41,970 bases of DNA from Leptospiraceae bacterium (GTDB lineage: Bacteria; Spirochaetota; Leptospiria; Leptospirales; Leptospiraceae). Below the pieces are notes generated by a model. That model was not told the origin of the DNA. It ran no database searches and saw only the letters and a list, made by a program, of their open reading frames with translations. Within the stretch, counting starts at the first letter, position 1. Each line of letters begins with the position of its first letter. The DNA is taken from positions 64,001 to 105,970 of the forward strand of contig DAORET010000006.1 in the NCBI GenBank assembly GCA_035347155.1. The letters run 5' to 3'. A program made the position numbers and the translations under genes. Of this stretch, positions 3,260 to 30,208 are shown piece by piece.

Positions 3260-5107
3260 TTATTCCAAGAAATATCTCTCTCGCACATCGTCCTGATTTA
3301 TCTCAAAATAATATTTATAAAAATGTTTATAGTCTTTTTGAATTTGCGCCGGTGAATTCCTATCTATTTCACTAATGTAGCGATCTAAATACGATTCAAA
3401 ATTGACAAACTCAAACTTTCCTGTTTTCTTCAACTCCGAAAAAAGAATCGCATCATAACGAAGGATTCTGAATTCACCTGGAACATTTTTTAAACGAATC
3501 CAATTGTAATCTGTTTTTGGTATTTCATTCGTTGGAAAAAAATGAATGTTTATATTTCTTTTTAGTAAATAGTCTATTGGTGCTGCTTTTTCATGACCAA
3601 CTTTGCCTCTCTCATAAATTGTTTGATGTGCTATAAACTCGTCCGTCAAACCAGTAACCGATTCAATGGCAATTCTAGGATTTAAATAAAAAGCAATCAT
3701 TGCTTGAGATCCACCAAAGGCAATACTTACTTCTAGTTCTTCAAAGATTTTAGTAAAAGGTAAGAGTGATAATTTTAATTCATAGACACTTTTCAATTTA
3801 TAAACATCACTCTCATTTGTGATATTATCAACAATTGGATATTGAGATCCCTTATAAGGATTGTTGTAAAACAGTGTGCAGATAACAACCATTAGACTCA
3901 AAACATTTCGAACTCTTGGAAATTTCATTCTAAATAAAAAGAGTTCTGTTGTAAGATAAAGCAATGGAGTAATTGGAATGAGAAGTCTTGCAAACATAAA
4001 ATCTCCTCCAATTTTTGTAAGATACAATATATACAAAAAAGAAGGAAGGAAAAGCAAAAGAAAAACTCGAATATAAAAATGATCTATTCGACTCTGCCCT
4101 GAGATCATTCTCTTCAAAGAAAATGATGGTTTAATTCGATAGAGATTTCTCTTTCTTAATCTTAATTTTCTACGTCTCATTTTATAGCGACGAGAGAAAA
4201 GAACGAGAGCCAAATAACGCAATTTAGAGCTAACTCTTGTTATACGCAAAAACCAAAAAAGAACTAACAAAAAAGGTAAGACCAAGATATAGTAAGAAGA
4301 GAAATACAAATAGGTATACTTGATTCCTTGCTCTAAATAAGATTCCATTCCAGATTTAGCATAGAATGTATTTGGAAAAAACCAACCGTAATAAGTATAC
4401 CTCCAAAACCAATAGGGTAAGAAAATAAAAAGAAACGGTAGTTGTAATACAAATTGATTGATAAAGTAAGTTCTATATTCCAAATTTCGATACTTAAAAA
4501 GTAAAACATAAAGAGTTGCAAATATATAAAAAAGAGCCCCATCGGGACGAGTCATAATAGATAAAACCAACAGAAAAAGACCTATTAACACATGTAAACC
4601 ACGATCACTTAAAAGAATAAAGACACTTCCTGCTAGTAACAAAAAACCAAAAAAAGTCGTTTCAAGTCCTCCAGTTGCAAAAATTTGTCCATGGGAATGC
4701 AAGGCATATCCAATAAAAGCGACTGGAAAGTAAAAGGATTTAAAATGTTCCCCTGCACGAATTTTAAAAATAGTGTTTCCTGTTTTATACAAAAAGAAAA
4801 GACTAAGGAGATAGAAAAATAAACCCAAGCCAGTTGATACATGAATTGGATCTAGTTGAAAAAACATTCCAACAGAAATAAATAAAGTCCACAGAAAGTT
4901 TGTAAATCCTTCTACAAATTCACCAGCGTTGTAAACTAAACCCAATCCATCATTTAAATTTTTTGCATATCGAAAGGAGATAAATGCATCATCACATACC
5001 CAATGCAAAATATATGCTTTATATAATGCATATATCCCTATCGCTAGGCTAATATAAATAGATACAATCTTTCGGTTAAGGCTGACTGAATATTTTTTAG
5101 AATACAA
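3260..5107 (-). CDS. Polytopic membrane glycosyltransferase, GT-C fold (ArnT/PMT-like)
   Basis: More than 10 predicted TM helices. The first-loop motif HWVCDDAFISFRYAKN resembles the DE/DD-x-RYA loop-1 motif of GT83/GT39 GT-C transferases. There is a basic cytoplasmic loop RRYKMRRRKLRLRKR and a C-terminal soluble domain. Confidence 0.55.
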   Translation of the reverse strand: MYSKKYSVSLNRKIVSIYISLAIGIYALYKAYILHWVCDDAFISFRYAKNLNDGLGLVYNAGEFVEGFTNFLWTLFISVGMFFQLDPIHVSTGLGLFFYLLSLFFLYKTGNTIFKIRAGEHFKSFYFPVAFIGYALHSHGQIFATGGLETTFFGFLLLAGSVFILLSDRGLHVLIGLFLLVLSIMTRPDGALFYIFATLYVLLFKYRNLEYRTYFINQFVLQLPFLFIFLPYWFWRYTYYGWFFPNTFYAKSGMESYLEQGIKYTYLYFSSYYILVLPFLLVLFWFLRITRVSSKLRYLALVLFSRRYKMRRRKLRLRKRNLYRIKPSFSLKRMISGQSRIDHFYIRVFLLLFLPSFLYILYLTKIGGDFMFARLLIPITPLLYLTTELFLFRMKFPRVRNVLSLMVVICTLFYNNPYKGSQYPIVDNITNESDVYKLKSVYELKLSLLPFTKIFEELEVSIAFGGSQAMIAFYLNPRIAIESVTGLTDEFIAHQTIYERGKVGHEKAAPIDYLLKRNINIHFFPTNEIPKTDYNWIRLKNVPGEFRILRYDAILFSELKKTGKFEFVNFESYLDRYISEIDRNSPAQIQKDYKHFYKYYFEINQDDVRERYFLE

Positions 5108-5165
5108 AAATCGACTCCGATATTTATCTTTATTTTAAAATGAATCTGGTCAATCTTGATTTAGC

Positions 5166-6344
5166 ATGAAGAAAAAGATAGCTCTTATATCACCCATTTT
5201 TTCGCCCAATATATCCGGTGGTGCGGAAAGGCATGCGATTAGCTTTGCGGAACTGTTATCAGAAGACTACGATCTAGAAATACTTACAACAAAAGCACTC
5301 GATTATATTACCTGGAAAAATGTAATAAAAGAGGATACGGAAACATTTCATGCAAGCCTTGTGAGAAGATTCAAGGTAAAAGAAACTAGAAATATTAAAT
5401 CTTTCAATCGTTACCATGCAAGGCTAATTCATAAACTTCCAAATATCTCTGAGAAAGAAATGGAAAAATGGATTCAAAAGCAGGGTCCTTATTGTCCTGA
5501 TCTAATTCATTTCATACGAGAAAACCAACATAAATATGATGTGTTTATTTTTATGACTTATCTCTATTATACAACGATATACGGTATGTCTGAAATTAAA
5601 AATAAATCTATTTGTGTCACAACATTGCATGACGAGCCTCCTGCTTACTTTCCTATCTACAAAAAAATTCTCACAAATGAAATCAGTTACTCATTTAATA
5701 CTCCAGAAGAGAGAGATTTATTTGTTAAAATTTTCTCTTACAAACCAAAGCATTACTCCATAATCGGTTTACATGTAGATCAACCTGCTATTGTTCATTT
5801 GCCCAAGCCCAAAGGAAATTATGTAGTTTATATTGGAAGAATTGATGCAGGCAAAGGAATATACACGTTAATTGAAAAGTTTTTGGAATGGAGAAATAAA
5901 TACAATGAAGAGATAGACTTAGTTTTAATTGGAGGGGGTGAACAAGTATTAGCCTCTGAACATGTAAGATTTACAGGCTATATCTCGGAAGAAGAAAAAA
6001 TCAATTATTTAAAGAATGCATTGTTTTTAATCAACCCATCTCATTTAGAAAGTTTCTCCATTGTAGTTATGGAAGCATGGCTTCTTGAAATTCCAGTATT
6101 GGTAAATGCGGAATCGGAAATTTTAAAAGCCCACTGTATTCGAAGCAATGCAGGTTTATACTACTCAGACCAAGAAAACTTTGAGGCTACTTTTAATTAC
6201 CTACTCGATCACCCCGAAACCCGAAAAAAAATGGGCAGGAATGGCAGACTCTATGTGGAAATGAATTATACCAGAGATAAAGTAAAACAAAAATTACTTA
6301 GCTTAGTAGAGAGTATTAAAAAAAGGGACAGTGCAAAAACTTAG
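5166..6344 (+). CDS. Glycosyltransferase family 4 (GT-B, group 1)
   Basis: N-terminus ISPIFSPNISGGAERH, GRIDAGKGI, and the E-x7-E region FSIVVMEAWLLEIPVLVNAESE typical of GT4 retaining transferases. It is divergent from the GT-C gene. Confidence 0.75.
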   Translation: MKKKIALISPIFSPNISGGAERHAISFAELLSEDYDLEILTTKALDYITWKNVIKEDTETFHASLVRRFKVKETRNIKSFNRYHARLIHKLPNISEKEMEKWIQKQGPYCPDLIHFIRENQHKYDVFIFMTYLYYTTIYGMSEIKNKSICVTTLHDEPPAYFPIYKKILTNEISYSFNTPEERDLFVKIFSYKPKHYSIIGLHVDQPAIVHLPKPKGNYVVYIGRIDAGKGIYTLIEKFLEWRNKYNEEIDLVLIGGGEQVLASEHVRFTGYISEEEKINYLKNALFLINPSHLESFSIVVMEAWLLEIPVLVNAESEILKAHCIRSNAGLYYSDQENFEATFNYLLDHPETRKKMGRNGRLYVEMNYTRDKVKQKLLSLVESIKKRDSAKT

Positions 6345-6540
6345 CATTTTTGAAAAAGTATATAAATAACTCACATTTCGCAAAATTTATTATTTGAGAA
6401 GTAAATGATGATTTTAAGATATTAGAGAATGCTAATGAATTAATAAAACCAATAGCCTGCGATAGCTCGGCTGATGGAGAGCTTATAAAGCGATGGATGG
6501 ACAAACCCTCCGTTCCCTCTCTCTCGCACAGCTCAAGCCT

Positions 6541-6744: not shown

Positions 6745-8418
6745 TCAAAAATGATTCTGAGCAATTCTTCTGACTGCATCTACCAATCTATCAATCTCTT
6801 CCTTGGTATTATAAAAAGAAAGGGAAGGACGAACAGTAGACTCTACACCATATCGTCGAAGAGAAGGTTGTGCGCAATGATGACCAGCACGCACAGCAAT
6901 TCCCTCTAAATCTAAAAGTCTTCCAACTTCAGATGTTTGTTTATTTTGCAATACAAAGGAAAGAACCCCTACTTTATTGGGAGCGGTTCCTATCAAACGT
7001 AAACCTTTTATTTGAGTCAAACCAGCTGTAGCATACTCCAAAAGAGAATGTTCATATTTAGCTATGTTCTCTAGACCTATGCTATTCACATAATCCAAAG
7101 CAGCACCCAAACCTACTGCATCTGCTATATTCGGAGTTCCTGCCTCAAATTTAGCTGGTAAATCACTATAAGTTGTTTCCTCAAAGGTTACATTTTTTAT
7201 CATATTCCCACCACCCTGCCAAGGAGGCATTAACTCTAAAATTTCTTTTCTTCCATAAACAACACCGATCCCAGTAGGACCAAAGATTTTATGTCCAGAG
7301 AAAACAAAGAAATCAGCTTCCAAATCTTGAACGTTAACTGGAATATGTGCGACCGACTGCGCCCCATCGATTAACACTTTTGCTCCATGCCTTTTCGCAA
7401 GTCCTATCATTTCTTTTACAGGTAGAATTGTTCCAAGACTATTTGATGCTTGCGTCAAAGATACAAATTTAGTCCTCGGACCAAGGAGTCTCTCATAATC
7501 TTCTAGAATTACTTCTCCTCTCTCATTCAGTGGAATAACACGAATGATGGCACCCTTCTCCTTTGCTACAATTTGCCAAGGGACAATATTTGCGTGATGC
7601 TCTGCTTGAGATAGAATGATCTCATCCCCTGCTTGAAAATACTTTCTTCCGTATGTTTGAGCGACTAAATTGATCGCCTCCGTTGTTCCTCTAACAAATA
7701 TAATTTCTGATGTGGATGAAGCCTTAATAAAATTCTTTACTTTCTCTCTTGCATCCTCGAATGCATCTGTAGATCGAGCAGCTAACGTGTGCGCTCCTCT
7801 ATGTATATTTGAATTATCATTTGAGTAGTAATGACTGATTGCATCAATCACAATTTTCGGTTTTTGCGTTGTTGCAGCATTGTCAAACCAAGCTAGTGGC
7901 TTTCCATGCACTTTCTGATTTAACACTGGAAAATCTTTCCGAATCTGATTCACATCAAATGGTTGATTGGAATAAATATCTTTTACAAATCTAGAATCAC
8001 TCTGTTTTTGAAAAAAAACACAATTATCCAATCCATTCCAATTTAAATTATGATTCGAGTTTTTACCTTGAATACTTTCGACAAATGATTTCAGGTTATC
8101 ATACTTTCTTTCACCAACAATTTCTGATTGCTGTTTCTTTAAAGTCCCAACGGATTCAGAAATCGTTTTTTGATCCAAATTCAACTTTTCAGAAACAGAC
8201 TCATTTCTATCTGTAATTTCCGAAGTATTTTTTCCAAATACTATCTCTTGGATTTTCTCAAAATCTAAATCTTTTTCTTTTCCAGAAAAAGATTTTTCAG
8301 GCATATATTTATTAGCCGCTACTTTAAAAGAACTCCCCGAAATACTATTTGCTTTCGGAAGTTCATTATAAAGCTTTGAAGCTATTTGCGCAATAAAACT
8401 TGTATCGAATGGTTCCAT
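6745..8418 (-). CDS. Group II cysteine desulfurase (SufS/CsdA-like) with ~170-aa low-complexity N-terminal extension; putative encapsulin cargo
   Basis: PLP lysine context FSGHKIFGPTGIGVVYG and catalytic Cys context RAGHHCAQP. The preferred start is ATG 8416-8418 (MEPFDTSF), preceded by AGGAGA at a 5-nt spacing. The ORF-track start at 8487 is likely too long. The first ~170 residues are S/K/E/N-rich with no fold motifs. Confidence 0.8.
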   Translation of the reverse strand: MEPFDTSFIAQIASKLYNELPKANSISGSSFKVAANKYMPEKSFSGKEKDLDFEKIQEIVFGKNTSEITDRNESVSEKLNLDQKTISESVGTLKKQQSEIVGERKYDNLKSFVESIQGKNSNHNLNWNGLDNCVFFQKQSDSRFVKDIYSNQPFDVNQIRKDFPVLNQKVHGKPLAWFDNAATTQKPKIVIDAISHYYSNDNSNIHRGAHTLAARSTDAFEDAREKVKNFIKASSTSEIIFVRGTTEAINLVAQTYGRKYFQAGDEIILSQAEHHANIVPWQIVAKEKGAIIRVIPLNERGEVILEDYERLLGPRTKFVSLTQASNSLGTILPVKEMIGLAKRHGAKVLIDGAQSVAHIPVNVQDLEADFFVFSGHKIFGPTGIGVVYGRKEILELMPPWQGGGNMIKNVTFEETTYSDLPAKFEAGTPNIADAVGLGAALDYVNSIGLENIAKYEHSLLEYATAGLTQIKGLRLIGTAPNKVGVLSFVLQNKQTSEVGRLLDLEGIAVRAGHHCAQPSLRRYGVESTVRPSLSFYNTKEEIDRLVDAVRRIAQNHF

Positions 8419-8431
8419 AGTATCTCCTAGT

Positions 8432-9871
8432 CTACTTTGGTAGAGAATTTCTATTCTGATAATCGTGATAATATCCGACTTCAACATTCTCTAAAACAGC
8501 TAACGCATCATCCGTTAAGACAACAGCGGATGAGTAGAGTGTTAATAGGTAAGAAGCTACTCCAAGATTATCTAATCCCATGAGTCGTGCGGAGAGACTT
8601 GGAGAAATTTCACCAGGTATTCCAATCTGATGAAGACCAACAACACCCTGCTCTTCCTCTCCCACACGGAGTAATAATATACTTGTAGTTCCAAACCACT
8701 GGTTCGATAAATTCGTATTTTTAACTTCTAGTTTATCACATGGGATAATTGGTATACCACGCCATGTGATAACCGGACTTCCAAATATTTGAGTTGTAAC
8801 TGGTGGAACTCCCCTCCAAGTGCATTCTCTTTCAAACGCAGCAATCGCTTTGGGATGCGCTAGAAAAAAAGCTGGTTTTTTCCAAACCAACGCAAGTAGT
8901 TCATCTAAATCGTCAGGCGTTGGAGCTCCATATCGTGTGCTAATTCTCATAGATGGATCAACAGAATGGAGTAATCCAAATTTTTTACTGTTTATTAGTT
9001 CCCATTCTTGTCTTTCTTTGATTCCTTCAATCGTTAGCCGCATTTGCTCTTCTAATTGATTGTAGGGATTATTATACAAATCAGAAACTCGTGTGTGAAC
9101 TCTAACTACGGTTTGAATTGCATTTAAAGAATATTCTCGGGGTTTATCTGAATAATCAATAAATGTCTCTGGAATTTCAACATTTTCAGCAAAACCAGAT
9201 ACTAAATCAATATTCCTTTCACCATATTTATTTACGGTCGATCTCAATTCAATGTGTTTATCAATCGCCTTTTTAAAATCTTCTTTTAAATTTGGAAACT
9301 CACTTAAAATATCATCTAAATCTTTTCCTGAAAGGGTAAGCAATTTACAAGGAGTGATCGTTCTAACAGTAACGTCAGACGGAATATCAGACACTAATTC
9401 GATTTCTCCGAAATATTCTCCTTCAGTTAGTAGTGCAATTCTCAAATCACTGCCGTGCACTCCTTTACTTAGAACCTCGACTTGCCCTTGTGCTATGATA
9501 AAAAATTTATTTTTATCAACCCCTTCTACTACTAATTTATTTCCTAATGTAACCTCTTCTGTCTTAAAACGATTTGCCATCCGATTTATAATATCATCTT
9601 GGAATTTTGCAAACAGTGGCACTGATCGAAGAGACTGCGGATTGAAAGATACTGCGCCATCCTTGAAATTCAATTCTACTCTTTCTGCCTTTTTTAATTC
9701 TACTTTTGTTCTGTTCACTCTATACGTTCCACCTTCAACATGAACCCATGGAAGAAGACTTAATAGATATCTCGGGGTAATAGACATCATCTGTGGACGA
9801 GTCTTTGTAGTATTCGCAAGGTTTCTTGCTACTGACGTTGTTACGCTTCTTTGTAATATGTTATCTGACAT
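8432..9871 (-). CDS. Family 2B encapsulin-like shell protein, paralog 2 (HK97-like with internal cNMP-binding domain)
   Basis: Size of 479 aa. The internal CAP-type cNMP-binding motif is FIIAQGQVEVLSKGVHGSDLRIALLTEGEYFGEIELVSD...PCKLLTL. It is adjacent to a cysteine desulfurase with an N-terminal extension and to cysE. It is about 75% identical to the upstream paralog. Confidence 0.6.
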   Translation of the reverse strand: MSDNILQRSVTTSVARNLANTTKTRPQMMSITPRYLLSLLPWVHVEGGTYRVNRTKVELKKAERVELNFKDGAVSFNPQSLRSVPLFAKFQDDIINRMANRFKTEEVTLGNKLVVEGVDKNKFFIIAQGQVEVLSKGVHGSDLRIALLTEGEYFGEIELVSDIPSDVTVRTITPCKLLTLSGKDLDDILSEFPNLKEDFKKAIDKHIELRSTVNKYGERNIDLVSGFAENVEIPETFIDYSDKPREYSLNAIQTVVRVHTRVSDLYNNPYNQLEEQMRLTIEGIKERQEWELINSKKFGLLHSVDPSMRISTRYGAPTPDDLDELLALVWKKPAFFLAHPKAIAAFERECTWRGVPPVTTQIFGSPVITWRGIPIIPCDKLEVKNTNLSNQWFGTTSILLLRVGEEEQGVVGLHQIGIPGEISPSLSARLMGLDNLGVASYLLTLYSSAVVLTDDALAVLENVEVGYYHDYQNRNSLPK

Positions 9872-9887: not shown

Positions 9888-11351
9888 TTAAATGCCTAAT
9901 CCATCACTAAAATAGTTTGAATTTTTATTTTGATAGCTATGATAATATCCCACCTCCACATTTTCTAAAACAGCAATAGCATCGTCGGTTAAGACGGCTG
10001 CGGCAGAATATAACGTTAATAGATAGGATGCTACCCCCAAAGGATCTAAACCCATTAATCTAGCAGATAGGCTTGGTAAGATTTCTCCCGGGATTCCAGC
10101 TTGGTGTAATCCAATGACTCCTTGATTTTCTTCCCCAACTCGGACTAATAGAATATTTGTTGTTCCAAGCCAAGGTCTAGAGTAGTAATTACTTTTTACT
10201 TCCAATTTGTCTGAAGGAATAATTGGAATTCCTCGCCATAGTATCAGAGGTGCACCGAAAGAATTCTCTGTCACAGGAGGGACTCCTCTCCAAGTGCATT
10301 CCCTTTCAAATGCAGCAATCGCTTTAGGATGAGCCAAAAAGAATGAGGGTCTTTTCCAAACCAAGGCAAGTAACTCATCTAAATCATCAGGAGTTGGAGC
10401 TCCATAACGTGTGCTAATTCTAAAAGCTGGTGATACCGAATGGAGTAATCCAAATTTTTTATTATTTATCAATTCCCACTCTTGTCTTTCTTTGATTCCT
10501 TCAATCGTTAGCCGCATTTGCTCTTCTAATTGATTATAGGGGTTATTGTATAAATCAGAAACTCGTGTGTGAACTCGAACTACTGTCTGGATTGCATTTA
10601 AAGAATATTCTCTCGGAGATTCTGAGTAATCAATGAAAGTCTCTGGAATTTCAACATTTTCAGCAAAACCAGACACAAAATCGATATTTCTTTCGCCGTA
10701 TTTATTCACAGTGGAGAGCAATTCAATATAATCATCAATAGCTTTTCTAAAATCATTTCTCAAATTTGGAAACTCATTTAGAATTTGCTCTAAGTCTGCT
10801 CCGTATAACGTCAATAATTTACAAGGAGTTGTTGTCTTTACTGTGACATCTGAGGGCTTATCCGAAAGCAGACCCTGTTCTCCAAAATATTCACCTTCTG
10901 TGAGAAGTGCGATTCTCAGATCACTCCCATGAACACCCTTGCTAAATACTTCAACCTGACCTTGGGCTATAATAAAGAATTTATTCTTATCCTCACCTTC
11001 AACAACAAGAGTCGTTCCTAAACTAACTTCCTCCGTTTTAAATTGATTCGAAATTCGCGTGAGTATATCTAATGGAAGTTTCGAAAAAACAGGAACCGTT
11101 CGAAGCGCTTCTGGATTAAATGATAAAAAAACAAATCCATCTACAATATTTAATTCAATTCGTTCTGCTCTTTTTAACTCAACCCTGGTCCTATTGACTC
11201 GGTAAGTTCCACCTTCTACTTGCACCCAAGGGATAACACTAAGTAACCACCTTGGGGTTATTGACATCATCTGTGGATGTGTCTTTGTTGTATTGGTCAA
11301 ATTTTTAGCCACTGATGTTGTCACACTACGCTGCAAAATATTATCTGACAT
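9888..11351 (-). CDS. Family 2B encapsulin-like shell protein, paralog 1 (HK97-like with internal cNMP-binding domain)
   Basis: Size of 487 aa with the same architecture and cNMP motif (GEYFGEQGLLSD...PCKLLTL). The N-terminus MSDNILQRSVTTSVAKNL is shared with paralog 2. Confidence 0.6.
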   Translation of the reverse strand: MSDNILQRSVTTSVAKNLTNTTKTHPQMMSITPRWLLSVIPWVQVEGGTYRVNRTRVELKRAERIELNIVDGFVFLSFNPEALRTVPVFSKLPLDILTRISNQFKTEEVSLGTTLVVEGEDKNKFFIIAQGQVEVFSKGVHGSDLRIALLTEGEYFGEQGLLSDKPSDVTVKTTTPCKLLTLYGADLEQILNEFPNLRNDFRKAIDDYIELLSTVNKYGERNIDFVSGFAENVEIPETFIDYSESPREYSLNAIQTVVRVHTRVSDLYNNPYNQLEEQMRLTIEGIKERQEWELINNKKFGLLHSVSPAFRISTRYGAPTPDDLDELLALVWKRPSFFLAHPKAIAAFERECTWRGVPPVTENSFGAPLILWRGIPIIPSDKLEVKSNYYSRPWLGTTNILLVRVGEENQGVIGLHQAGIPGEILPSLSARLMGLDPLGVASYLLTLYSAAAVLTDDAIAVLENVEVGYYHSYQNKNSNYFSDGLGI

Positions 11352-11384: not shown

Positions 11385-12293
11385 CTATATACCTGATCCA
11401 AAATAAAAATGCTCTTGTATTACTTTCGCCTGCGTAATTTTAGAGTTAGGCGGAATATCTGTAGTAATCCAAACATTTCCTCCAATGGTTGAATTCTTAC
11501 CAATAGTGATCCGCCCCAAAATATTTGCGTTAGAATAGATAACTACATTATCTTCAATAATTGGATGCCTTGGCTCATTTTTTATTGGATTTCCAGATTC
11601 ATCTAATGAAAACTTTTTTGCTCCGAGCGTAACTCCCTGATAAAGCCGAACGTTATTTCCTATAATCGCAGTTTCTCCAATTACAACGCCGGTTCCATGA
11701 TCAATACAAAAATTTTCTCCTATAACCGCACCTGGATGAATGTCAATGCCAGTCTCTGAATGCGCAAGTTCAGAAATAATTCTAGGCAATAAGGGGATAT
11801 TTAATTTTAAAAGTTCATGAGCAATTCGATGATTCATCATTGCTCTTATCGTAGGGTAACAAAAAATTATTTCAGCAATGTTCTTCGCGGCCGGGTCAGC
11901 ATCATACATTGCTTTTGCATCTGTAAATAATAACCGACGAATTCTTGGTAGTGATTCAATAAATTTTAACGTCAGTCGTTCGCTCTTTTCCCGTATATTA
12001 TCATCTAAAGCGTGAAAATCAAACCAAAGGCCATTGTGTATTTGCTGAGAAAGCATTTCATATAATTTCTCTAGATTACCAACTGTTGAATACGCAACCA
12101 TTGCAGAGTTGGTATTATTCTTCCCAAAGTATCCGGGAAATATTATGGTTCTAAGTAATTCGATGATTTCCTTTAAGTTTTCTATCGATGGGAGAGTTTT
12201 ATTCTTTGGTATAAAATTTATCGCAGCATCTTCAGCCTTCAATAAATCACTCGTCGTCTTTTCCAAAGCAGAGCCAATATCAATTTGCCGCAT
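11385..12293 (-). CDS. cysE: Serine O-acetyltransferase
   Basis: The left-handed beta-helix hexapeptide block GIDIHPGAVIGENFCIDHGTGVVIGETAIIGNNVRLYQGVTLG closely matches the CysE core. It is the first gene of the minus-strand operon. Confidence 0.85.
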   Translation of the reverse strand: MRQIDIGSALEKTTSDLLKAEDAAINFIPKNKTLPSIENLKEIIELLRTIIFPGYFGKNNTNSAMVAYSTVGNLEKLYEMLSQQIHNGLWFDFHALDDNIREKSERLTLKFIESLPRIRRLLFTDAKAMYDADPAAKNIAEIIFCYPTIRAMMNHRIAHELLKLNIPLLPRIISELAHSETGIDIHPGAVIGENFCIDHGTGVVIGETAIIGNNVRLYQGVTLGAKKFSLDESGNPIKNEPRHPIIEDNVVIYSNANILGRITIGKNSTIGGNVWITTDIPPNSKITQAKVIQEHFYFGSGI

Positions 12294-12679: not shown

Positions 12680-13285
12680 ATGATTGACTTTCATTTCAAA
12701 ACTTTAGATGATGAAATACTAGTTACCTTAAAAACAGATGTCACTGAAATTGGAACCTTTCATAGAATGGCTTCCGTTATTTTTTTTCTAGGCTGGGATA
12801 TTTTATCCGGAGAAATCTTAACTATCAATGAGAACGGAACTGATTTTGCAATCGACACCCTAAGATTAAAAGCAGATGGAAATCCAGGCTCCAAAAAAGC
12901 AGTGGAGATCGGGATCATGATGGATGCCATTTTTTCTAAAAGAAAAGGCCTAGATGAACTCTTTCAAAACTATGAAGCGAGAACTCCCAATATTCGAAAT
13001 TTTTTTAGAGAAAGAGCAGAGCTTATTTTTCAAGATGAAATAGAAAAACAACAAACTTGTTTTTATATAGAAGCAGATTCAGGTAGAGGTCTGCTTTATC
13101 ATGTCACAAAGGTCTTACTAGAAAACAAAATCAACATTCTATCAGGTCTCATAGAAACAGACGAAATTACGCAAAGAGCAAAAGATACATTTTATTTAGT
13201 TGATCATGAAGGAAAAATGTTTGGAGGAACTCAGAAAGCAGAGGAAATACGCAGCCAAATATTAAAACCTCTCTTTAATCAGTAA
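12680..13285 (+). CDS. ACT-domain pair protein (small-molecule-binding regulatory protein)
   Basis: Two beta-alpha-beta-beta-alpha-beta-like segments (ILVTLKTDVTEIGTFHRMASVIFFLGWDI and CFYIEADSGRGLLYHVTKVLLENKINI) resemble tandem ACT domains. It is divergent from the cysE operon. Confidence 0.45.
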   Translation: MIDFHFKTLDDEILVTLKTDVTEIGTFHRMASVIFFLGWDILSGEILTINENGTDFAIDTLRLKADGNPGSKKAVEIGIMMDAIFSKRKGLDELFQNYEARTPNIRNFFRERAELIFQDEIEKQQTCFYIEADSGRGLLYHVTKVLLENKINILSGLIETDEITQRAKDTFYLVDHEGKMFGGTQKAEEIRSQILKPLFNQ

Positions 13286-13373: not shown

Positions 13374-13940
13374 TTAAATAAACTTATCAGAGTTTAGTGC
13401 AGTCTCAATTATTTCTGCGATATCTGCATAGCCGGATCTTTTAGCAAGATCTAAGGCAGTGTTTCCATCCTCATCTTCTAGGTGCAACGCTGCTCCTTTT
13501 TCGATTAAGATTTTAGCTGCATCAAATCTACCATGTGTAGCTGCATAATGAAGAGGTGTAAATCCAAAAGTATTTTGTTTGTTTAAAGTAGCTCCATTTT
13601 CAACAAGAAGCTTTACCACTTCTGTTTTACCGTGATGGGCAGCATAATGGAGCGGAGTGTATTCAAAATCGCTTTGAGCATTCACTTCTGCCCCACTCTC
13701 AATTAAGACTTTCGCAATATCCACCCCACTTTGATTGGCAGCATAGTGAAGCGGTGTATATCCGAAATTGCTTTTAGAATTTAGTTCAGCACCCCTTTCG
13801 ATAAGCGATATGACTAATTCAACATGACCCCGACTCGCTGCCATATGAAGAGGAGTTTGACCATCTTCATTCTTTCCGTGTACGTTTAATATGCTCTCAA
13901 AATCTACTTTTTCTTTTTGTTCTAGTAACTCTCTATTCAT
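13374..13940 (-). CDS. Ankyrin-repeat protein (5 repeats)
   Basis: Repeated TPLH-x-AA-x-GH...LL..GA..N motifs (GQTPLHMAASRGHVELV, GYTPLHYAANQSG, EYTPLHYAAHHGK, GFTPLHYAATHGR). Confidence 0.85.
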   Translation of the reverse strand: MNRELLEQKEKVDFESILNVHGKNEDGQTPLHMAASRGHVELVISLIERGAELNSKSNFGYTPLHYAANQSGVDIAKVLIESGAEVNAQSDFEYTPLHYAAHHGKTEVVKLLVENGATLNKQNTFGFTPLHYAATHGRFDAAKILIEKGAALHLEDEDGNTALDLAKRSGYADIAEIIETALNSDKFI

Positions 13941-23430: not shown

Positions 23431-25500
23431 ATGTTTAAAGTTGGTATTGGACAATCAGATGAGATCGACACACTGTGTGCGACAGAAAAAGCAATCGCAC
23501 AAGCGAGAAATTCTCTAGGAAGTTTTATTCCGCAAGCCTGTATTTTATTTGCAGGGCTTGATTTTGAGCATGAGAAAATATTAGAAGAAATCAATAAAAC
23601 TTTTCCAGATATTAATTTGATAGGATGTTCTTCCGGTGGAGAGATTACAAGCGAATTCGGTTTTACTGATGATTCGATTGTAATATTGCTACTCTATTCA
23701 GATGAAGTATCTTTTTCTATTGGGCTTGGGTATGATTCAGAAATGAATTCAGAAATAGCGGCGAATAACGCTTTGGAGATGGCACGAAAAAATCTCACAA
23801 ACGAAGAAAAACTATGCCTTGTTTTTACTGATAGTTTCAGTCTCTCAGGAAACAAGATCATTCAAACTCTGAATCAGAAAGTGACAAAAGGATGTAAAAT
23901 TTTCGGTGGTGTTTCAGCTAGACCATTTGTTTCCAACCTAAAGACAAAGCAATTTTTTAAAGACAAAGCTCTTTCTCAATCCGTAGTAGTAATGCTGATT
24001 GGAGGACCTATAGAGTATAAATACAGTCTATCTCATACTTGGAAGCCTATTGGTAGAAAAGCAATTGCAACGTTAGTTGAAGGCAAAAAGTTAATTAAAA
24101 TAGATGATATGAGAGCACTCGATTATTATCATTATTATCTTGGAGATTTTTCATTTCCTGCTCCAGAATTTCCACTCGCAGTTTATCAAAACGATTCAGA
24201 AGATTTTTACATTCGAGTTCCTGGCGGCTATAACAAAGAAGATGGATCTGTTTTATTTGCAGGTGAAATCCCACAAGGTTCCACAATTCAACTAACTGAG
24301 GCAATGAGAGATTATATTGTAGACGATTTAGACCAAGAATCGATTCGTCAGAAAAAAATGAAAATTAATTTTGAGCCAGCCATGGCATTTGCCTTTTCGT
24401 GTATCGTTCGAAAGCAAATACTAGGAACAAAGGTAAAAGAAGAAATTCGTGTGTTAAAAGAACATTTCCCACCTTCTTTCCCAATATTTGGATTCTATAC
24501 TTATGGAGAAATTTCTCCCCTAGAATCAGAAGAAAGTAGTAATTTGCACAATTGCACAATGGTTACCTTAGTAATAGGAACTAAATCAACTTCCAATCAA
24601 ACAGAAAAGAAAGAGGCTAATCAAGATTATCCCGAAGAATCTCCAAATTTAAGTGATTCGGAAATCATAGAAGAACAAAAAAATGAAATTCTAAAACTAA
24701 GAAAGAAATTAGAAAGAGAACATAGTTATAGAGTAAACTTAGAAAATGTAAAAGACTTTCATGGTTCGGTTTTAAAAACAATCAATCATGAAATTGAAGC
24801 AGCAAAACAAGTAATTCAGCAAAAGAATGTAGAGCTAGAAAAACTTTACAAAGCTCTTGAATCAGAAAAAAAGAAGTCAGATGATTTACTTTTGAACATA
24901 TTACCAACACAAGTTGCTGAAGAATTAAAACAGAACGATTTTACAAAGCCTGTCTATTATGAGTCAGCATCTGTATTATTTACCGATTTCAAAGGTTTTA
25001 CAAAAATTGCAGGCAAAATGAGCCCTTCTGAACTAGTTACTGAATTGGATTTTTATTTTTCCGAATTTGATCGGGTGATTGAAAAATATGGTTTAGAAAA
25101 ACTAAAGACGATAGGCGATGCTTATATGTGTGCAAGCGGATTACCTAAAATCAATTCTAATCATGCAATAGACTTAGTAAATGCAGCTTTAGAAATTCAA
25201 GAGTTTATGCTAAATCTAAAAAAGGAAAAAGGTGAATCTGTTTGGGAACTTAGAATTGGAATTAACTCAGGTCCACTTATGGCAGGTGTGATTGGAAAAA
25301 AGAAATTCTCCTACGACGTATGGGGAGATACAGTAAACATCGCATCTAGGCTTGAGTCCAATGGAGAAGCAGGTAAAATAAATATTTCGCAGTATACTTA
25401 CGAATTGATTCGAGACCACTTTATTTGTGAATATAGAGGTAAAATCGCAGCAAAAAATAAGGGTGAAATTGATATGTATTTTGTATTAGGACGAAAGTAA
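23431..25500 (+). CDS. FIST-domain adenylate/guanylate cyclase (FIST_N-FIST_C-coiled coil-class III cyclase)
   Basis: The N-terminal ~380 aa are FIST-like (GCSSGGEITSEFG, GFYTYGEISP). The C-terminal CYCc domain is VLFTDFKGFTKIAGKMSP...KTIGDAYMCASGLP...GPLMAGVIG...DVWGDTVNIASRLES. The start lies 1 nt after the upstream stop. Confidence 0.8.
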   Translation: MFKVGIGQSDEIDTLCATEKAIAQARNSLGSFIPQACILFAGLDFEHEKILEEINKTFPDINLIGCSSGGEITSEFGFTDDSIVILLLYSDEVSFSIGLGYDSEMNSEIAANNALEMARKNLTNEEKLCLVFTDSFSLSGNKIIQTLNQKVTKGCKIFGGVSARPFVSNLKTKQFFKDKALSQSVVVMLIGGPIEYKYSLSHTWKPIGRKAIATLVEGKKLIKIDDMRALDYYHYYLGDFSFPAPEFPLAVYQNDSEDFYIRVPGGYNKEDGSVLFAGEIPQGSTIQLTEAMRDYIVDDLDQESIRQKKMKINFEPAMAFAFSCIVRKQILGTKVKEEIRVLKEHFPPSFPIFGFYTYGEISPLESEESSNLHNCTMVTLVIGTKSTSNQTEKKEANQDYPEESPNLSDSEIIEEQKNEILKLRKKLEREHSYRVNLENVKDFHGSVLKTINHEIEAAKQVIQQKNVELEKLYKALESEKKKSDDLLLNILPTQVAEELKQNDFTKPVYYESASVLFTDFKGFTKIAGKMSPSELVTELDFYFSEFDRVIEKYGLEKLKTIGDAYMCASGLPKINSNHAIDLVNAALEIQEFMLNLKKEKGESVWELRIGINSGPLMAGVIGKKKFSYDVWGDTVNIASRLESNGEAGKINISQYTYELIRDHFICEYRGKIAAKNKGEIDMYFVLGRK

Positions 25501-27465: not shown

Positions 27466-30208
27466 ATGTATTATGTTCTATTTCTATTTATAAGCATAAG
27501 TGTGTTTGGACAGACTACGACTAATTTGGTTAAGAAAGTCTCTATCAGTAATTTCTCAAATTATAAAACAAATCCAGATTCAAAAATGCAAGAGAATATA
27601 TATAAATCACTCTCAAATCGATTTAAAGAAAATGGTTATACTGTTGATCAATTAACAGAGAGCTCTCTTGAAAAAAAGTTAGCCACAGCTAAAGCAAATG
27701 GAAGTAGTTTTTTAATCGATGGATATTATAAAAAAACATCCGGTGAAAATTTAAATATTTTTGTTCAAATTTATAATACCGAAAACGGCAAACTGATTGA
27801 TGCATTCAATCAATCACCAGAATCTCTTCCAGAACTAGGTCAAATAACGTTAGATAAATCTGAAATGACGATCACAGATGATAAAGCAATAGAAGATATG
27901 TCTAAAAAAGTTTTTACTAGAATCCGTGCAAATCCAAAACGCCTTGAGAATCGAGAGAATATAAATGAATATGTAGCGCAAGCTCCGATTGGAAATGAAA
28001 TGAATATCCCTATCCCACAAGAAGATGTTCAAAAAGCTTCCGAGGATGTATTCAAACTATTAAGTGAAGACAATTCTATTTCCATTGTATCAAAAAGAGT
28101 CGGACAGTCAGAGTCAGTTGATAGAACATCAGCTATCGTATCGGTTATTTCTAGATCAAGAATCGTTGATTCAGGAGCTAGAAATTTGGCTGATATTTTA
28201 AAATCTGTTCCAGGTCTGGAGGTTTTTTATGATCAATTCGGGTTTTATAAAGTTGCACTGAGGGGCATTCGTTCGAAATCTGGAATGCTTCTTATGATTG
28301 ATGGTCACCGAATGAATAATTTCTACGATGGTTCTACCTTCATAGACATTCGTGCTGATGCTATTGAAAAAGTTGAAATTATTAGAGGTCCCGGTTCTTC
28401 TGTCCATGGAACAAATGCGTTAGTTGGAGTAATTAACGTAGTAACTAGAGATCTTGGATCAGGAAAGAATTCACAGGGTGTCTTTAGCACACGTGCTGGA
28501 TCGTTTAATACATTTGAACCAACGGCTTTCTATTCAAGGAAGATAGGTGAGTCAGATTGGAGATTTACAACCTATGCTGGAAGCTATCAATCCGATCGCC
28601 AACAAAATCGAATTCCTTATGATGATTCTTGTGCTAGAACCACTCCTACTGCGGGGCAACCTTTCGGAGGGCTGTCAAATGCTTGTAGTAATCCAGGTTA
28701 TACTGTCTTACCATTATACGCTTCTCCTTGGGTAAAAACAAATGACCAAAAAAGACAAAACAATCTTTTCCTCAAACTTCAAAATGGAAGAGATGGATTC
28801 TATATTACTGGCAAGGTTTTAAATGAAACAAGAGGTCCCAATATGGGGGAAATTGCAACCGTTACGCCCTCTTCTGAGCTCAACTTCAATTTTATGAATG
28901 GTGCCATGGGTATCAATAAATTGAATATTACCGAAAAGCTATTAATCAGCGGAAAAGTATATGGAGATTCTTATGCTCGAAGAGATGATATACAAGTTGA
29001 AAGAGAGGACTATCGCAATCATACATTTATGAGCGCTAGAAAAAAAATCTCCTATGAATACTCTACCAAAGGGATTGAATCTGTTATTCAATACAATGCG
29101 CTTTCAAGCCTCGTTGTAATGCTTGGTTTTCAATTTGAAAAACTTGCTGTGAAGAATTTTTATACGCAACAAAATTATCTATCTACTACAACAGCACCGC
29201 TTCCAGGATTATTGCCATTCTTTTGGGATTATGATGGAACTCAAAAAAATCAAAACAGAGAGATCTATACAAGGTGAGTATATACAAGTAATTTGGGATC
29301 CTCTCCAGTGGCTTTCAATCACAATGGGATTGAGACAGGATAGATATTCTGATTTCGGAAGAACGTTAAACCCTAAAGGGGGGATCGTCATTATTCCTTT
29401 CGAAAAGATCTCTGCGGGAACTTTAATTTTAAAAATCCTAGGTGGATCAGCATTTAGGGCGCCTACATTTCAAGAGTTATACGACAGAACCCAGCAATAT
29501 CAAATTGGTGGTATCTTCGGAAACGATAAACTGAAACCAGAGACAATTAGAACCATTGAAATTGGAGCAGATTACAATACACCCTATAAACCTTTGAGTA
29601 TACTTTTAAATGGATATGCAAATAAAATCTATAATAACATAGATGGATTTAATCAATCAAATGTATTTCCTGGAAGAACAGATACATATGTTAATTTGAG
29701 AGGTATATCTATGATAGGTTACGAAGTGGAAGCAAGATTGAACTATTCTGCTAAAAATTATGGTTACGCAAATGCCTCCTGGGTTCAAGTTCTTGATAGC
29801 GGTGGAATTCCGCCTAACGATAAGGTTGACACAGTTACGTTTAGAATCGATGTTCCACAAGCACGAGCAAATATTGGTATAAATCATGAATTTACAAAGT
29901 ATTTCACTTTAAACAATTCAGTTTGGATTTCTTCTGAGAGAGGGTCTAACTCTCGTTATCCTTCGGAAGCTCAGGATAATAGAGCATTTAGAATTCCTCA
30001 ATATCATATTTGGAATGTAAGTCTGGCTACAACCGATGTTGTTTCTAAGAATTTAAACTTTGCGTTAAATATATTTAATCTAAACAATTATAAACTATAT
30101 GATGACATAAATAACGTAACATCAGCCTTTTATCCAAATAGAGTTATCCCTTCAGGCTATCTCTGGGGTCGCTATATTGAGTTTAAACTAACATATTTTC
30201 TAAATTAA
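27466..30208 (+). pseudogene. TonB-dependent outer-membrane receptor, interrupted by a frameshift in an A7 tract (two ORFs, 27466-29277 and 29231-30208)
   Basis: Signal peptide, ~210-aa N-terminal extension, and a plug domain (ADILKSVPGLEV...IDGHRMNNFYDG...VEIIRGPGSSVHGTNALVGVINVVTRD). The barrel continues in the second ORF in frame +1 after A7 at 29243-29249. Removing one A gives the continuous reading ...GTQKIKTERSIQGEY... Confidence 0.6.

Follow-up and report, generated by a model that had tools for sequence, protein, structure and literature searches.

A disordered N-terminal extension with conserved short motifs as the putative cargo-loading domain of a Family 2B encapsulin desulfurase from Leptospiraceae

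Desulfurase encapsulins and the Leptospiraceae operon

Encapsulated cysteine desulfurases are the commonest Family 2 encapsulin system, with about 1,480 operons catalogued, and those of the Family 2A type store elemental sulfur. The densities that electron cryo-microscopy has given for the long disordered tails of these enzymes are too weak for sequence assignment, which has limited the understanding of their recognition by the shell. Here we consider the desulfurase encoded in a 41,970-nucleotide stretch of a Leptospiraceae bacterium genome (the window; GenBank assembly GCA_035347155.1, contig DAORET010000006.1, positions 64,001 to 105,970 of the forward strand), which carries an N-terminal extension ahead of its catalytic core. 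A preliminary description of the window took this extension for a Family 2 cargo-loading domain, and both homology and context (the operon, the predicted disorder, the core and an N-terminal motif, M1) support that reading. The best explanation, to which we assign a probability of about 0.85, is that residues 1 to ~152 form an intrinsically disordered cargo-loading domain, tethering the desulfurase dimer to the lumen of a shell made from two paralogues.

Experimental proof of loading by such tails is limited to Family 2A desulfurases (PMC8049743, PMC10836720, PMC11659603) and a terpene cyclase of Family 2B (PMC11550324). The Enc-CD/Mmp1 system of M. smegmatis (8KG1, 8WOL; PMC11659603) is close in its proportions, with a cargo of 559 residues and a disordered tail spanning M1–I155, compared with 557 residues and a tail of ~152 in the window, and it likewise has a conserved motif at the extreme N-terminus. 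Its 155-residue tail is required for loading, for which any one motif is insufficient, and leaves activity unaffected (PMC11659603). Unlike the window, however, M. smegmatis has a single Family 2A shell gene without an insertion resembling a cyclic nucleoside monophosphate (cNMP)-binding domain, and mycobacterial tails are rich in Pro, Ala and Gly, contain VAPRG and YYFL motifs, neither of which the window tail has, and lack the second conserved block of that tail, M2.

The CyD/SrpI system of S. elongatus (PMC8049743; 6X8M) shares the operon composition of serine acetyltransferase, shell and desulfurase, and its core is 64% identical to that of the window enzyme. Two family motifs, LARLANEFFS and AASPYYFLDG, have been reported for SrpI-associated (Family 2A) desulfurase tails (PMC8049743), and the first has a counterpart here. 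The S. elongatus tail differs in its length (220–225 residues), its 30% content of Pro, Gly and Ala (P+G+A), a weak match to M1 and the lack of M2, and the operon in having only one shell gene, of Family 2A, and a rhodanese gene on its downstream side. In the Family 2A sulfur-storage compartment of A. baumannii (PMC10836720; 8T6R), M1 is clearly shared (STIARLANEFFSAVP) and a serine acetyltransferase gene again lies upstream, whereas the tail is longer (~225–250 residues), Pro/Gly/Ser-rich and equipped with two YYFL-type motifs, and there is a single Family 2A shell protein. For that tail a model has been proposed in which discontiguous short motifs joined by flexible linkers bind nonpolar luminal patches (PMC10836720).

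Characterised Family 2B systems resemble the window in their shells, which combine an HK97 fold with a cNMP-binding-like insertion, in having two shell genes and in the disordered N-terminal loading domain of their cargo. That cargo, however, is a terpene cyclase or of unknown function, and its tail motif, GPxGLGT, is unrelated to M1 or M2. The class to which the window belongs is the Family 2B desulfurase operons (199 operons in nine phyla), which were catalogued in 2021 with one or more cNMP-domain shells, a desulfurase whose disordered N-terminus is unannotated, and an enrichment of serine O-acetyltransferase (PMC8346489). That catalogue identified no specific targeting motif in the desulfurase systems (PMC8346489), and two-shell desulfurase operons are listed in PMC12407261. 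Recognition of the tail in the preliminary description was thus correct but not new, the kind of feature being known; the minor new points are a tail poor in Pro, Gly and Ala, the lack of YYFL, and M2 (DGLxAFVQxIR), which is previously undescribed.

The operon consists of four tightly spaced minus-strand genes separated by gaps of 33, 16 and 13 nt in order, each with its own Shine-Dalgarno sequence:

11385..12293, minus strand: serine O-acetyltransferase (EpsC/CysE type), first gene of the operon (NF041874, 167.8 bits, cut-off 150; hexapeptide repeats)
9888..11351, minus strand: Family 2B shell, upstream copy, 487 aa (NF041163, 560 bits, cut-off 400; PF19307 and PF00027)
8432..9871, minus strand: Family 2B shell, downstream copy, 479 aa (NF041163, 594 bits, cut-off 400; PF19307 and PF00027)
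6745..8418, minus strand: cysteine desulfurase cargo gene, last in the operon, 557 aa and a TGA stop (open reading frame, start codon, PF00266, public record)

Each shell protein comprises an SrpI-like HK97 domain and a cNMP-binding-like insertion. Both match the solved Family 2B shells 9bje, 9bhu and 9bix over their full length (for the downstream copy, E = 1e-118 with 9bje and 1e-109 with 9bhu), and the Family 2A shells SrpI, A. baumannii and Mmp1 over the HK97 part.

Start, boundaries and composition of the extension

8424..8428, minus strand: Shine-Dalgarno sequence AGGAG, 5 nt spacer to the desulfurase ATG (direct sequence reading)
7963..8418, minus strand: N-terminal extension, residues 1–152, putative cargo-loading domain (limits of alignments to solved structures, no family match, low model confidence)
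6748..7962, minus strand: SufS-type (class II) catalytic core, residues 153–557 (alignments to 8KG1 and E. coli SufS, model confidence mostly >90)

The ATG at 8416–8418 opens MEPFDTSFIAQ... and lies 13 nt past the TAG of the upstream shell gene. The surrounding open reading frame (6745..8487, minus strand) holds a further upstream ATG that overlaps the preceding gene. The preliminary description had called the start supported by a ribosome-binding site, and this is borne out by the AGGAG at 5 nt, by an identical 557-residue protein that is publicly recorded from a Leptospiraceae metagenome-assembled genome and has the same start, and by the position of M1. The core of this motif begins mostly at position 8 in homologues, as it does in the window protein, which supports the start codon.

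A mis-called start would make the extension an annotation artefact, with translation beginning near the SufS core and the frame upstream either untranslated or a decayed remnant. There is no direct support for this, although some members of the clade are called without an extension in databases (P0062, 401 aa; P0031, 442 aa; a Calothrix protein, 414 aa). Against it stand the canonical AGGAG and the scarcity of other start codons: the only in-frame ATG between the desulfurase start and the core is codon 39, and the TTG and GTG codons closer to the core lack a Shine-Dalgarno sequence, the GTGs moreover sitting within the conserved core, which they would truncate. An internal start near the core, which the preliminary description had raised as a test of its own reading, therefore finds no candidate backed by a ribosome-binding site. 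The stretch of 152 codons without a stop has a chance probability of ~8e-6 at the local base composition, and the remaining five frames contain 5–20 stops each across the extension. In addition, M1 is equally placed from the first methionine in most homologues, across phyla, and the conservation of M1 and M2 far exceeds that of the linker. A mis-called desulfurase start is effectively excluded, and we regard an artefact of this kind as extremely improbable.

The extension is somewhat shorter than the ~170 residues first proposed. Alignments to solved SufS-type enzymes begin at residues 152–154 (QPFDVNQIRKDFP), so the extension is ~152 residues long and the interval 7900..8418 given originally takes in ~20 residues of the core; the placing of the core onset at FDVNQ (residues 154–158) agrees with these alignments. 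Aminotransferase class V (PF00266) is matched at residues 177–545. Among solved structures, the closest match is 8KG1, which shows the core of the M. smegmatis encapsulin cargo (580 bits, E = 3.6e-173, residues 152–555); the next one reaches 502 bits. Residues 3–401 of E. coli SufS align to residues 154–552, and neither this enzyme, nor that of B. subtilis, nor the other SufS structures have a counterpart of residues 1–151, just as had been stated for free-standing SufS. The extension had further been held to be the most direct discriminator between an encapsulated and an ordinary desulfurase. It is indeed absent from housekeeping SufS, but it is not the sole discriminator, as the core sequence and the gene neighbourhood distinguish the two as well. 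In a plasmid collection the core is 64–65% identical to annotated Family 2A encapsulin cargo and 51–56% identical to SufS encoded next to sufD.

Nearly all of the 120 best homologues are longer than plain SufS, with a median of 158 residues before the core. In 119 of the best homologues the core is recognisable, and at least 90 residues precede it in 111 of these. The whole tail used as a homologue query gave no match, even though the identical protein sits in the database searched; this reflects the limits of word indexing on biased sequence and is not evidence for an orphan tail.

The extension scanned alone against Pfam and NCBIfam matched no family, so that the folded accessory domain contemplated in the preliminary description did not appear in either. 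In an AlphaFold2 model built from a 106-sequence alignment, 111 of the 152 residues (73%) have a predicted local distance difference test score (pLDDT) below 50, in agreement with a disordered tail; these low values fall at residues 21–51, 60–106 and 118–150, while the core is mostly above 90. The tail is borderline on an Uversky plot (0.411 against a boundary of 0.416). Helices are predicted at residues 6–19 (pLDDT 72–82), 53–60 (~50), 85–99 (low confidence) and 109–118 (~61), so the description of the extension as having no recognisable fold holds overall but overlooks these short elements. As modelled, the tail is a disordered chain bearing short amphipathic helices.

The composition of the extension is indeed biased to Ser, Lys, Glu and Asn (S+K+E+N 42.8%, compared with 23.0% for the core and 27.7% for the other proteins of the window). 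The Shannon entropy of its 20-residue windows (3.1–3.7 bits) equals the background of 3.33 ± 0.23, however, so it is compositionally biased rather than repetitive, and the label ‘low-complexity’ does not apply. At 9.9%, its P+G+A content is the lowest among 111 homologues, for which the median is 34%. Tail composition correlates among the homologues with genomic GC as approximated from the core (Spearman 0.45 and 0.55), and the Family 2A cargo tail of the low-GC Aliarcobacter cibarius shows the same shift (P+G+A 5.2%, S+K+E+N 42%), which indicates that richness in Pro, Gly and Ala is a composition trend and not a requirement. The richness in Ser, Lys, Glu and Asn is best explained by mutational bias in spacers under weak constraint, the genome having 34% GC. 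The Leptospiraceae case is in this sense a natural experiment, in which low GC has swapped the Pro/Gly/Ala spacer for one of Ser, Lys, Glu and Asn while two short helices survived, and the survivors indicate which residues are worth mutating.

Conserved motifs of the tail and a model for loading

8350..8418, minus strand: motif M1, residues 1–23 (MEPFDTSFIAQIASKLYNELPKA), predicted amphipathic helix 6–19 (conservation, pLDDT, profile)
8062..8106, minus strand: motif M2, residues 105–119 (KYDNLKSFVESIQGK), predicted amphipathic helix 109–118 (alignments, pLDDT ~61)
8002..8037, minus strand: weak motif M3, residues 128–139 (NGLDNCVFFQKQ), counterpart of the ‘GLC...’ block of relatives (partial conservation; low confidence)
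8230..8268, minus strand: lineage-specific helix, residues 51–63 (LDFEKIQEIVFGK) (AlphaFold2 helix 53–60, pLDDT ~50)

Two alignments of tails, one of 66 sequences and one of 25 diverse sequences, both contain two conserved blocks, M1 and M2, with unalignable sequence between them. The M1 consensus is MxExTPxLIAxIA[ST]RLYNExPGA, and its core is present in 85 of 119 homologues by a strict pattern and in ~100 by eye; the LARLANEFFS-type stretch of the window tail is FIAQIASKLYNELP, at residues 8–21. For M2 the consensus is DGLxAFVQxIR, and F112 is the sole invariant residue after Met1 in the 25 diverse tails. Identity to the closest relatives and to the rest is 60 and 47% for M1, 52 and 29% for M2, 18 and 6% for the linker, and 86 and 75% for the core. 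The hydrophobic-moment peaks of the tail fall on M1 and M2, whose hydrophobic faces include I9, I12 and L16 in the former and L109, F112 and I116 in the latter. This pattern, as read from the alignments, fits short linear motifs separated by linkers, and the retention of M1 and M2 while the spacer changed suggests that the motifs carry a specific function. By profile, M3 is detected in only a few loci. The helix at residues 51–63 is common only to Leptospiraceae-like relatives (LSLDRIKEIFSKQ, IQLEKIQEIFYKIG). The single tandem repeat of the tail, a weak one of 25 nt (8227..8273; 1.9 copies, 78% matches by Tandem Repeats Finder), lies under the LDFEKIQEIVFGK helix.

For comparison with proven tails, Family 2A cargo was translated from S. 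elongatus, A. baumannii, A. cibarius, Methylosinus and Variovorax, with Mycobacterium represented by fragments only. The M1 profile scores above all shuffles in four tails, those of A. baumannii (STIARLANEFFSAVP), Methylosinus (ALIARLANAFFLAPP), Variovorax (VVLARMASQLFAALPG) and Mycobacterium (ALSALASQLF). It is weak in S. elongatus, where 11 of 200 shuffles reach its score, and finds no match in the A. cibarius tail. The alignment of N-termini to Family 2 cargo suggested in the preliminary description thus does yield a shared motif, M1, which corresponds to LARLANEFFS. Homology of the whole domain to five Family 2A tails was also considered, but only M1 was aligned by the whole-tail profile, and we therefore claim homology for M1 alone. 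The M2 and M3 profiles have no counterpart in the Family 2A tails. Despite the coinciding positions, the identification of M2 with the M. smegmatis motif V107–G121 is not supported, as the Mycobacterium fragments have a YYFL motif in their C-terminal part and no M2.

We surveyed 89 loci, namely 80 fetched via the desulfurase alignment together with loci gathered earlier and the window, classifying shells by tblastn and motifs by profile. M2 occurs in 19 of 36 Family 2B loci against none of 42 Family 2A loci (Fisher p 1e-8), although this and the other p values of the survey ignore shared ancestry, the M2-bearing desulfurases being a related group. YYFL shows the opposite tendency (11/36 Family 2B and 26/42 Family 2A loci, Fisher p 0.007), and is frequent but not universal. 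Among Family 2B loci, M2 is found in 8 of 9 with two shells and in 7 of 21 with one (p = 0.014); these single-shell cases rule out a restriction of M2 to two-shell systems, in which it is only enriched. These sequence comparisons make M2 a candidate for an anchor peculiar to Family 2B.

These observations suggest a scheme for loading. During assembly of the two co-transcribed Family 2B shell proteins, short amphipathic helices of the tail, with M1 (residues 1–23), M2 (105–119) and possibly M3 as the candidates, would dock onto nonpolar patches of the inner shell. By analogy with Family 2 shells that have been characterised, these patches would lie about the three-fold axis and the A-domain, at a site to which three protomers contribute. 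In the shell of S. griseus the hydrophobic residues L264, L285, F430 and Y441 lie under the tail density (PMC11550324); by alignment, their equivalents in both window shells are V, M, L and Y, so the patch is still hydrophobic. The poorly conserved S/K/E/N-rich stretches would serve as flexible spacers between the helices, and the outcome would be a dimeric desulfurase trapped in the lumen. Once inside, the enzyme would convert L-cysteine to alanine and persulfide or elemental sulfur, as shown for Family 2A desulfurase encapsulins, and the upstream serine acetyltransferase would feed cysteine synthesis. Sulfur storage by this compartment is what we infer by analogy.

Several points weigh against the extension being a cargo-loading domain of the known kind. 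No published experiment deals with a Family 2B desulfurase system of either the one-shell or the two-shell kind. The tail has no AASPYYFLDG-type motif (no match to the pattern [YF][YF]F[LIV]), and a whole-tail profile found no significant similarity to the tails of S. elongatus or A. cibarius. It is poor in Pro, Gly and Ala, the residues in which cargo-loading domains of Family 2 have been described as rich (PMC11550324, PMC10836720). The protein scores 795.4 bits with NF041166, the model for Family 2A cargo desulfurases, which is below the cut-off of 800 (residues 68–552 align to profile positions 139–623). This marginal shortfall is why the public record names it ‘cysteine desulfurase’ only, and it seems that a Family 2B cargo falls just outside a naming model trained on Family 2A; the case thus documents a Family 2B desulfurase cargo that the NCBI naming model missed. 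Finally, no single motif sufficed for loading in M. smegmatis or S. elongatus, and the assignment of binding to M1 and M2 is accordingly put forward as hypothetical.

The last point bears on whether the tail might instead load through its bulk physicochemical properties, as a multivalent and non-specific flexible chain, with M1 and M2 not acting as specific anchors. Besides the insufficiency of single motifs (PMC11659603, PMC8049743), loading of the S. griseus 2-methylisoborneol synthase is redundant and not strictly motif-dependent (PMC11550324), which is what such a chain would predict. Yet in the window tail the composition has wholly changed relative to the clade, tracking genomic GC, while M1 and M2 have been retained, which argues that the motifs rather than the composition are under selection. 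We therefore consider loading by bulk properties rather unlikely.

A second alternative is that the extension is translated but has mainly another role, either in docking a sulfur acceptor or partner (rhodanese, CysK) or in folding back on the enzyme to regulate it. The pLDDT of 72–82 for the M1 helix is fairly high for an isolated helix, which might mean that the model packs it against the core, and rhodanese or CysK genes lie beside some related operons. There is, however, no rhodanese gene in the window operon, housekeeping SufS enzymes use acceptors without having a tail, and almost every locus surveyed pairs the tail with a shell gene. Homologous tails in three Family 2A systems are, moreover, needed for encapsulation and do not affect activity (PMC8049743, PMC11659603). 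A role of this sort is improbable.

Returning to the extension as a cargo-loading domain, a more general proposal can be made, although only tentatively and with the odds somewhat against it. Family 2 loading might depend on a small, exchangeable set of amphipathic helices and not on richness in Pro, Gly and Ala, with M1 as the universal desulfurase anchor and M2 as a Family 2B-specific one that replaces YYFL in this lineage. M2, enriched as it is alongside two near-identical shell paralogues, may recognise a feature of the lumen peculiar to Family 2B shells.

Shell pairs, related loci and neighbouring genes

In the two-component Family 2B system of S. lydicus, which also has adjacent shell genes, the A-domain tells the two proteins apart, Enc1 having TVWK and Enc2 RRRK (PMC12407261). 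Both window shells carry LVWK, and thus VWK where Enc2 has RRRK. Nine two-shell loci of the desulfurase type, the window included, were compared with these S. lydicus motifs, and in each of them the two copies alike have LVWK. Within a genome the shell pairs of these nine loci (the window and L001, L012–L014, L016–L018 and L023) are 75–93% identical, those of the window 82%, and they are often closer to each other than to same-position copies across phyla. This suggests repeated duplication or gene conversion, and not the old Enc1/Enc2 split of actinobacteria.

A Family 2 shell gene lies directly upstream of the desulfurase in 73 of the 80 fetched loci. In another Leptospiraceae genome (L001) the four genes, from acetyltransferase through both shells to desulfurase, stand in the same order as here; Telmatocola (L002) has two shells, desulfurase and rhodanese, and Chlorobium (L004) acetyltransferase, one shell and desulfurase. 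A Family 2B shell is directly upstream of the cargo in all three. The serine acetyltransferase gene precedes the shells in L001, in L004 and in S. elongatus. In Telmatocola sphagniphila (CP074694.1, locus 5028..6484) the upstream shell is called as pieces of 358 and 125 aa, which suggests that the first shell copy is frameshifted, in what is a complete genome. A Calothrix plasmid (L009; AP018275.1, locus 3546..4790) encodes the 414-residue desulfurase of the encapsulin clade mentioned above, found by tblastn at 61% identity and without an annotated tail; the fetched 8.3 kb contain no annotated shell gene, and this may be an orphaned cargo core.

The possibility that such tails occur on other types of cargo was addressed by an exhaustive profile search, in a library that was collapsed at 50% identity and so under-represents full-length relatives. 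It gave 103 matches, and all of those with a recognisable domain were truncated desulfurases, which speaks against that possibility within this search; one of the 103 is a read-through from shell into desulfurase.

A scan of the operon for promoters and terminators returned counts equal to the shuffled expectation and is uninformative. About 12 kb from the shell genes lies a FIST-domain adenylate/guanylate cyclase (23431..25500, plus strand). Binding of cyclic AMP by the cNMP-binding-like domains of such shells was not found in published work, so that the proximity is probably a coincidence. Two genes next to the operon have no evident link to encapsulins: 12680..13285 (plus strand), encoding a small protein with a weak ACT-like match, and 13374..13940 (minus strand), encoding a protein of 188 residues with several ankyrin repeats. 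Further along the window, a TonB-dependent receptor is apparently split into a Plug reading frame and a beta-barrel reading frame (27466..29277 and 29231..30208, plus strand) that overlap by 47 nt; a frameshift, decay to a pseudogene or a fault in the assembly might account for this.

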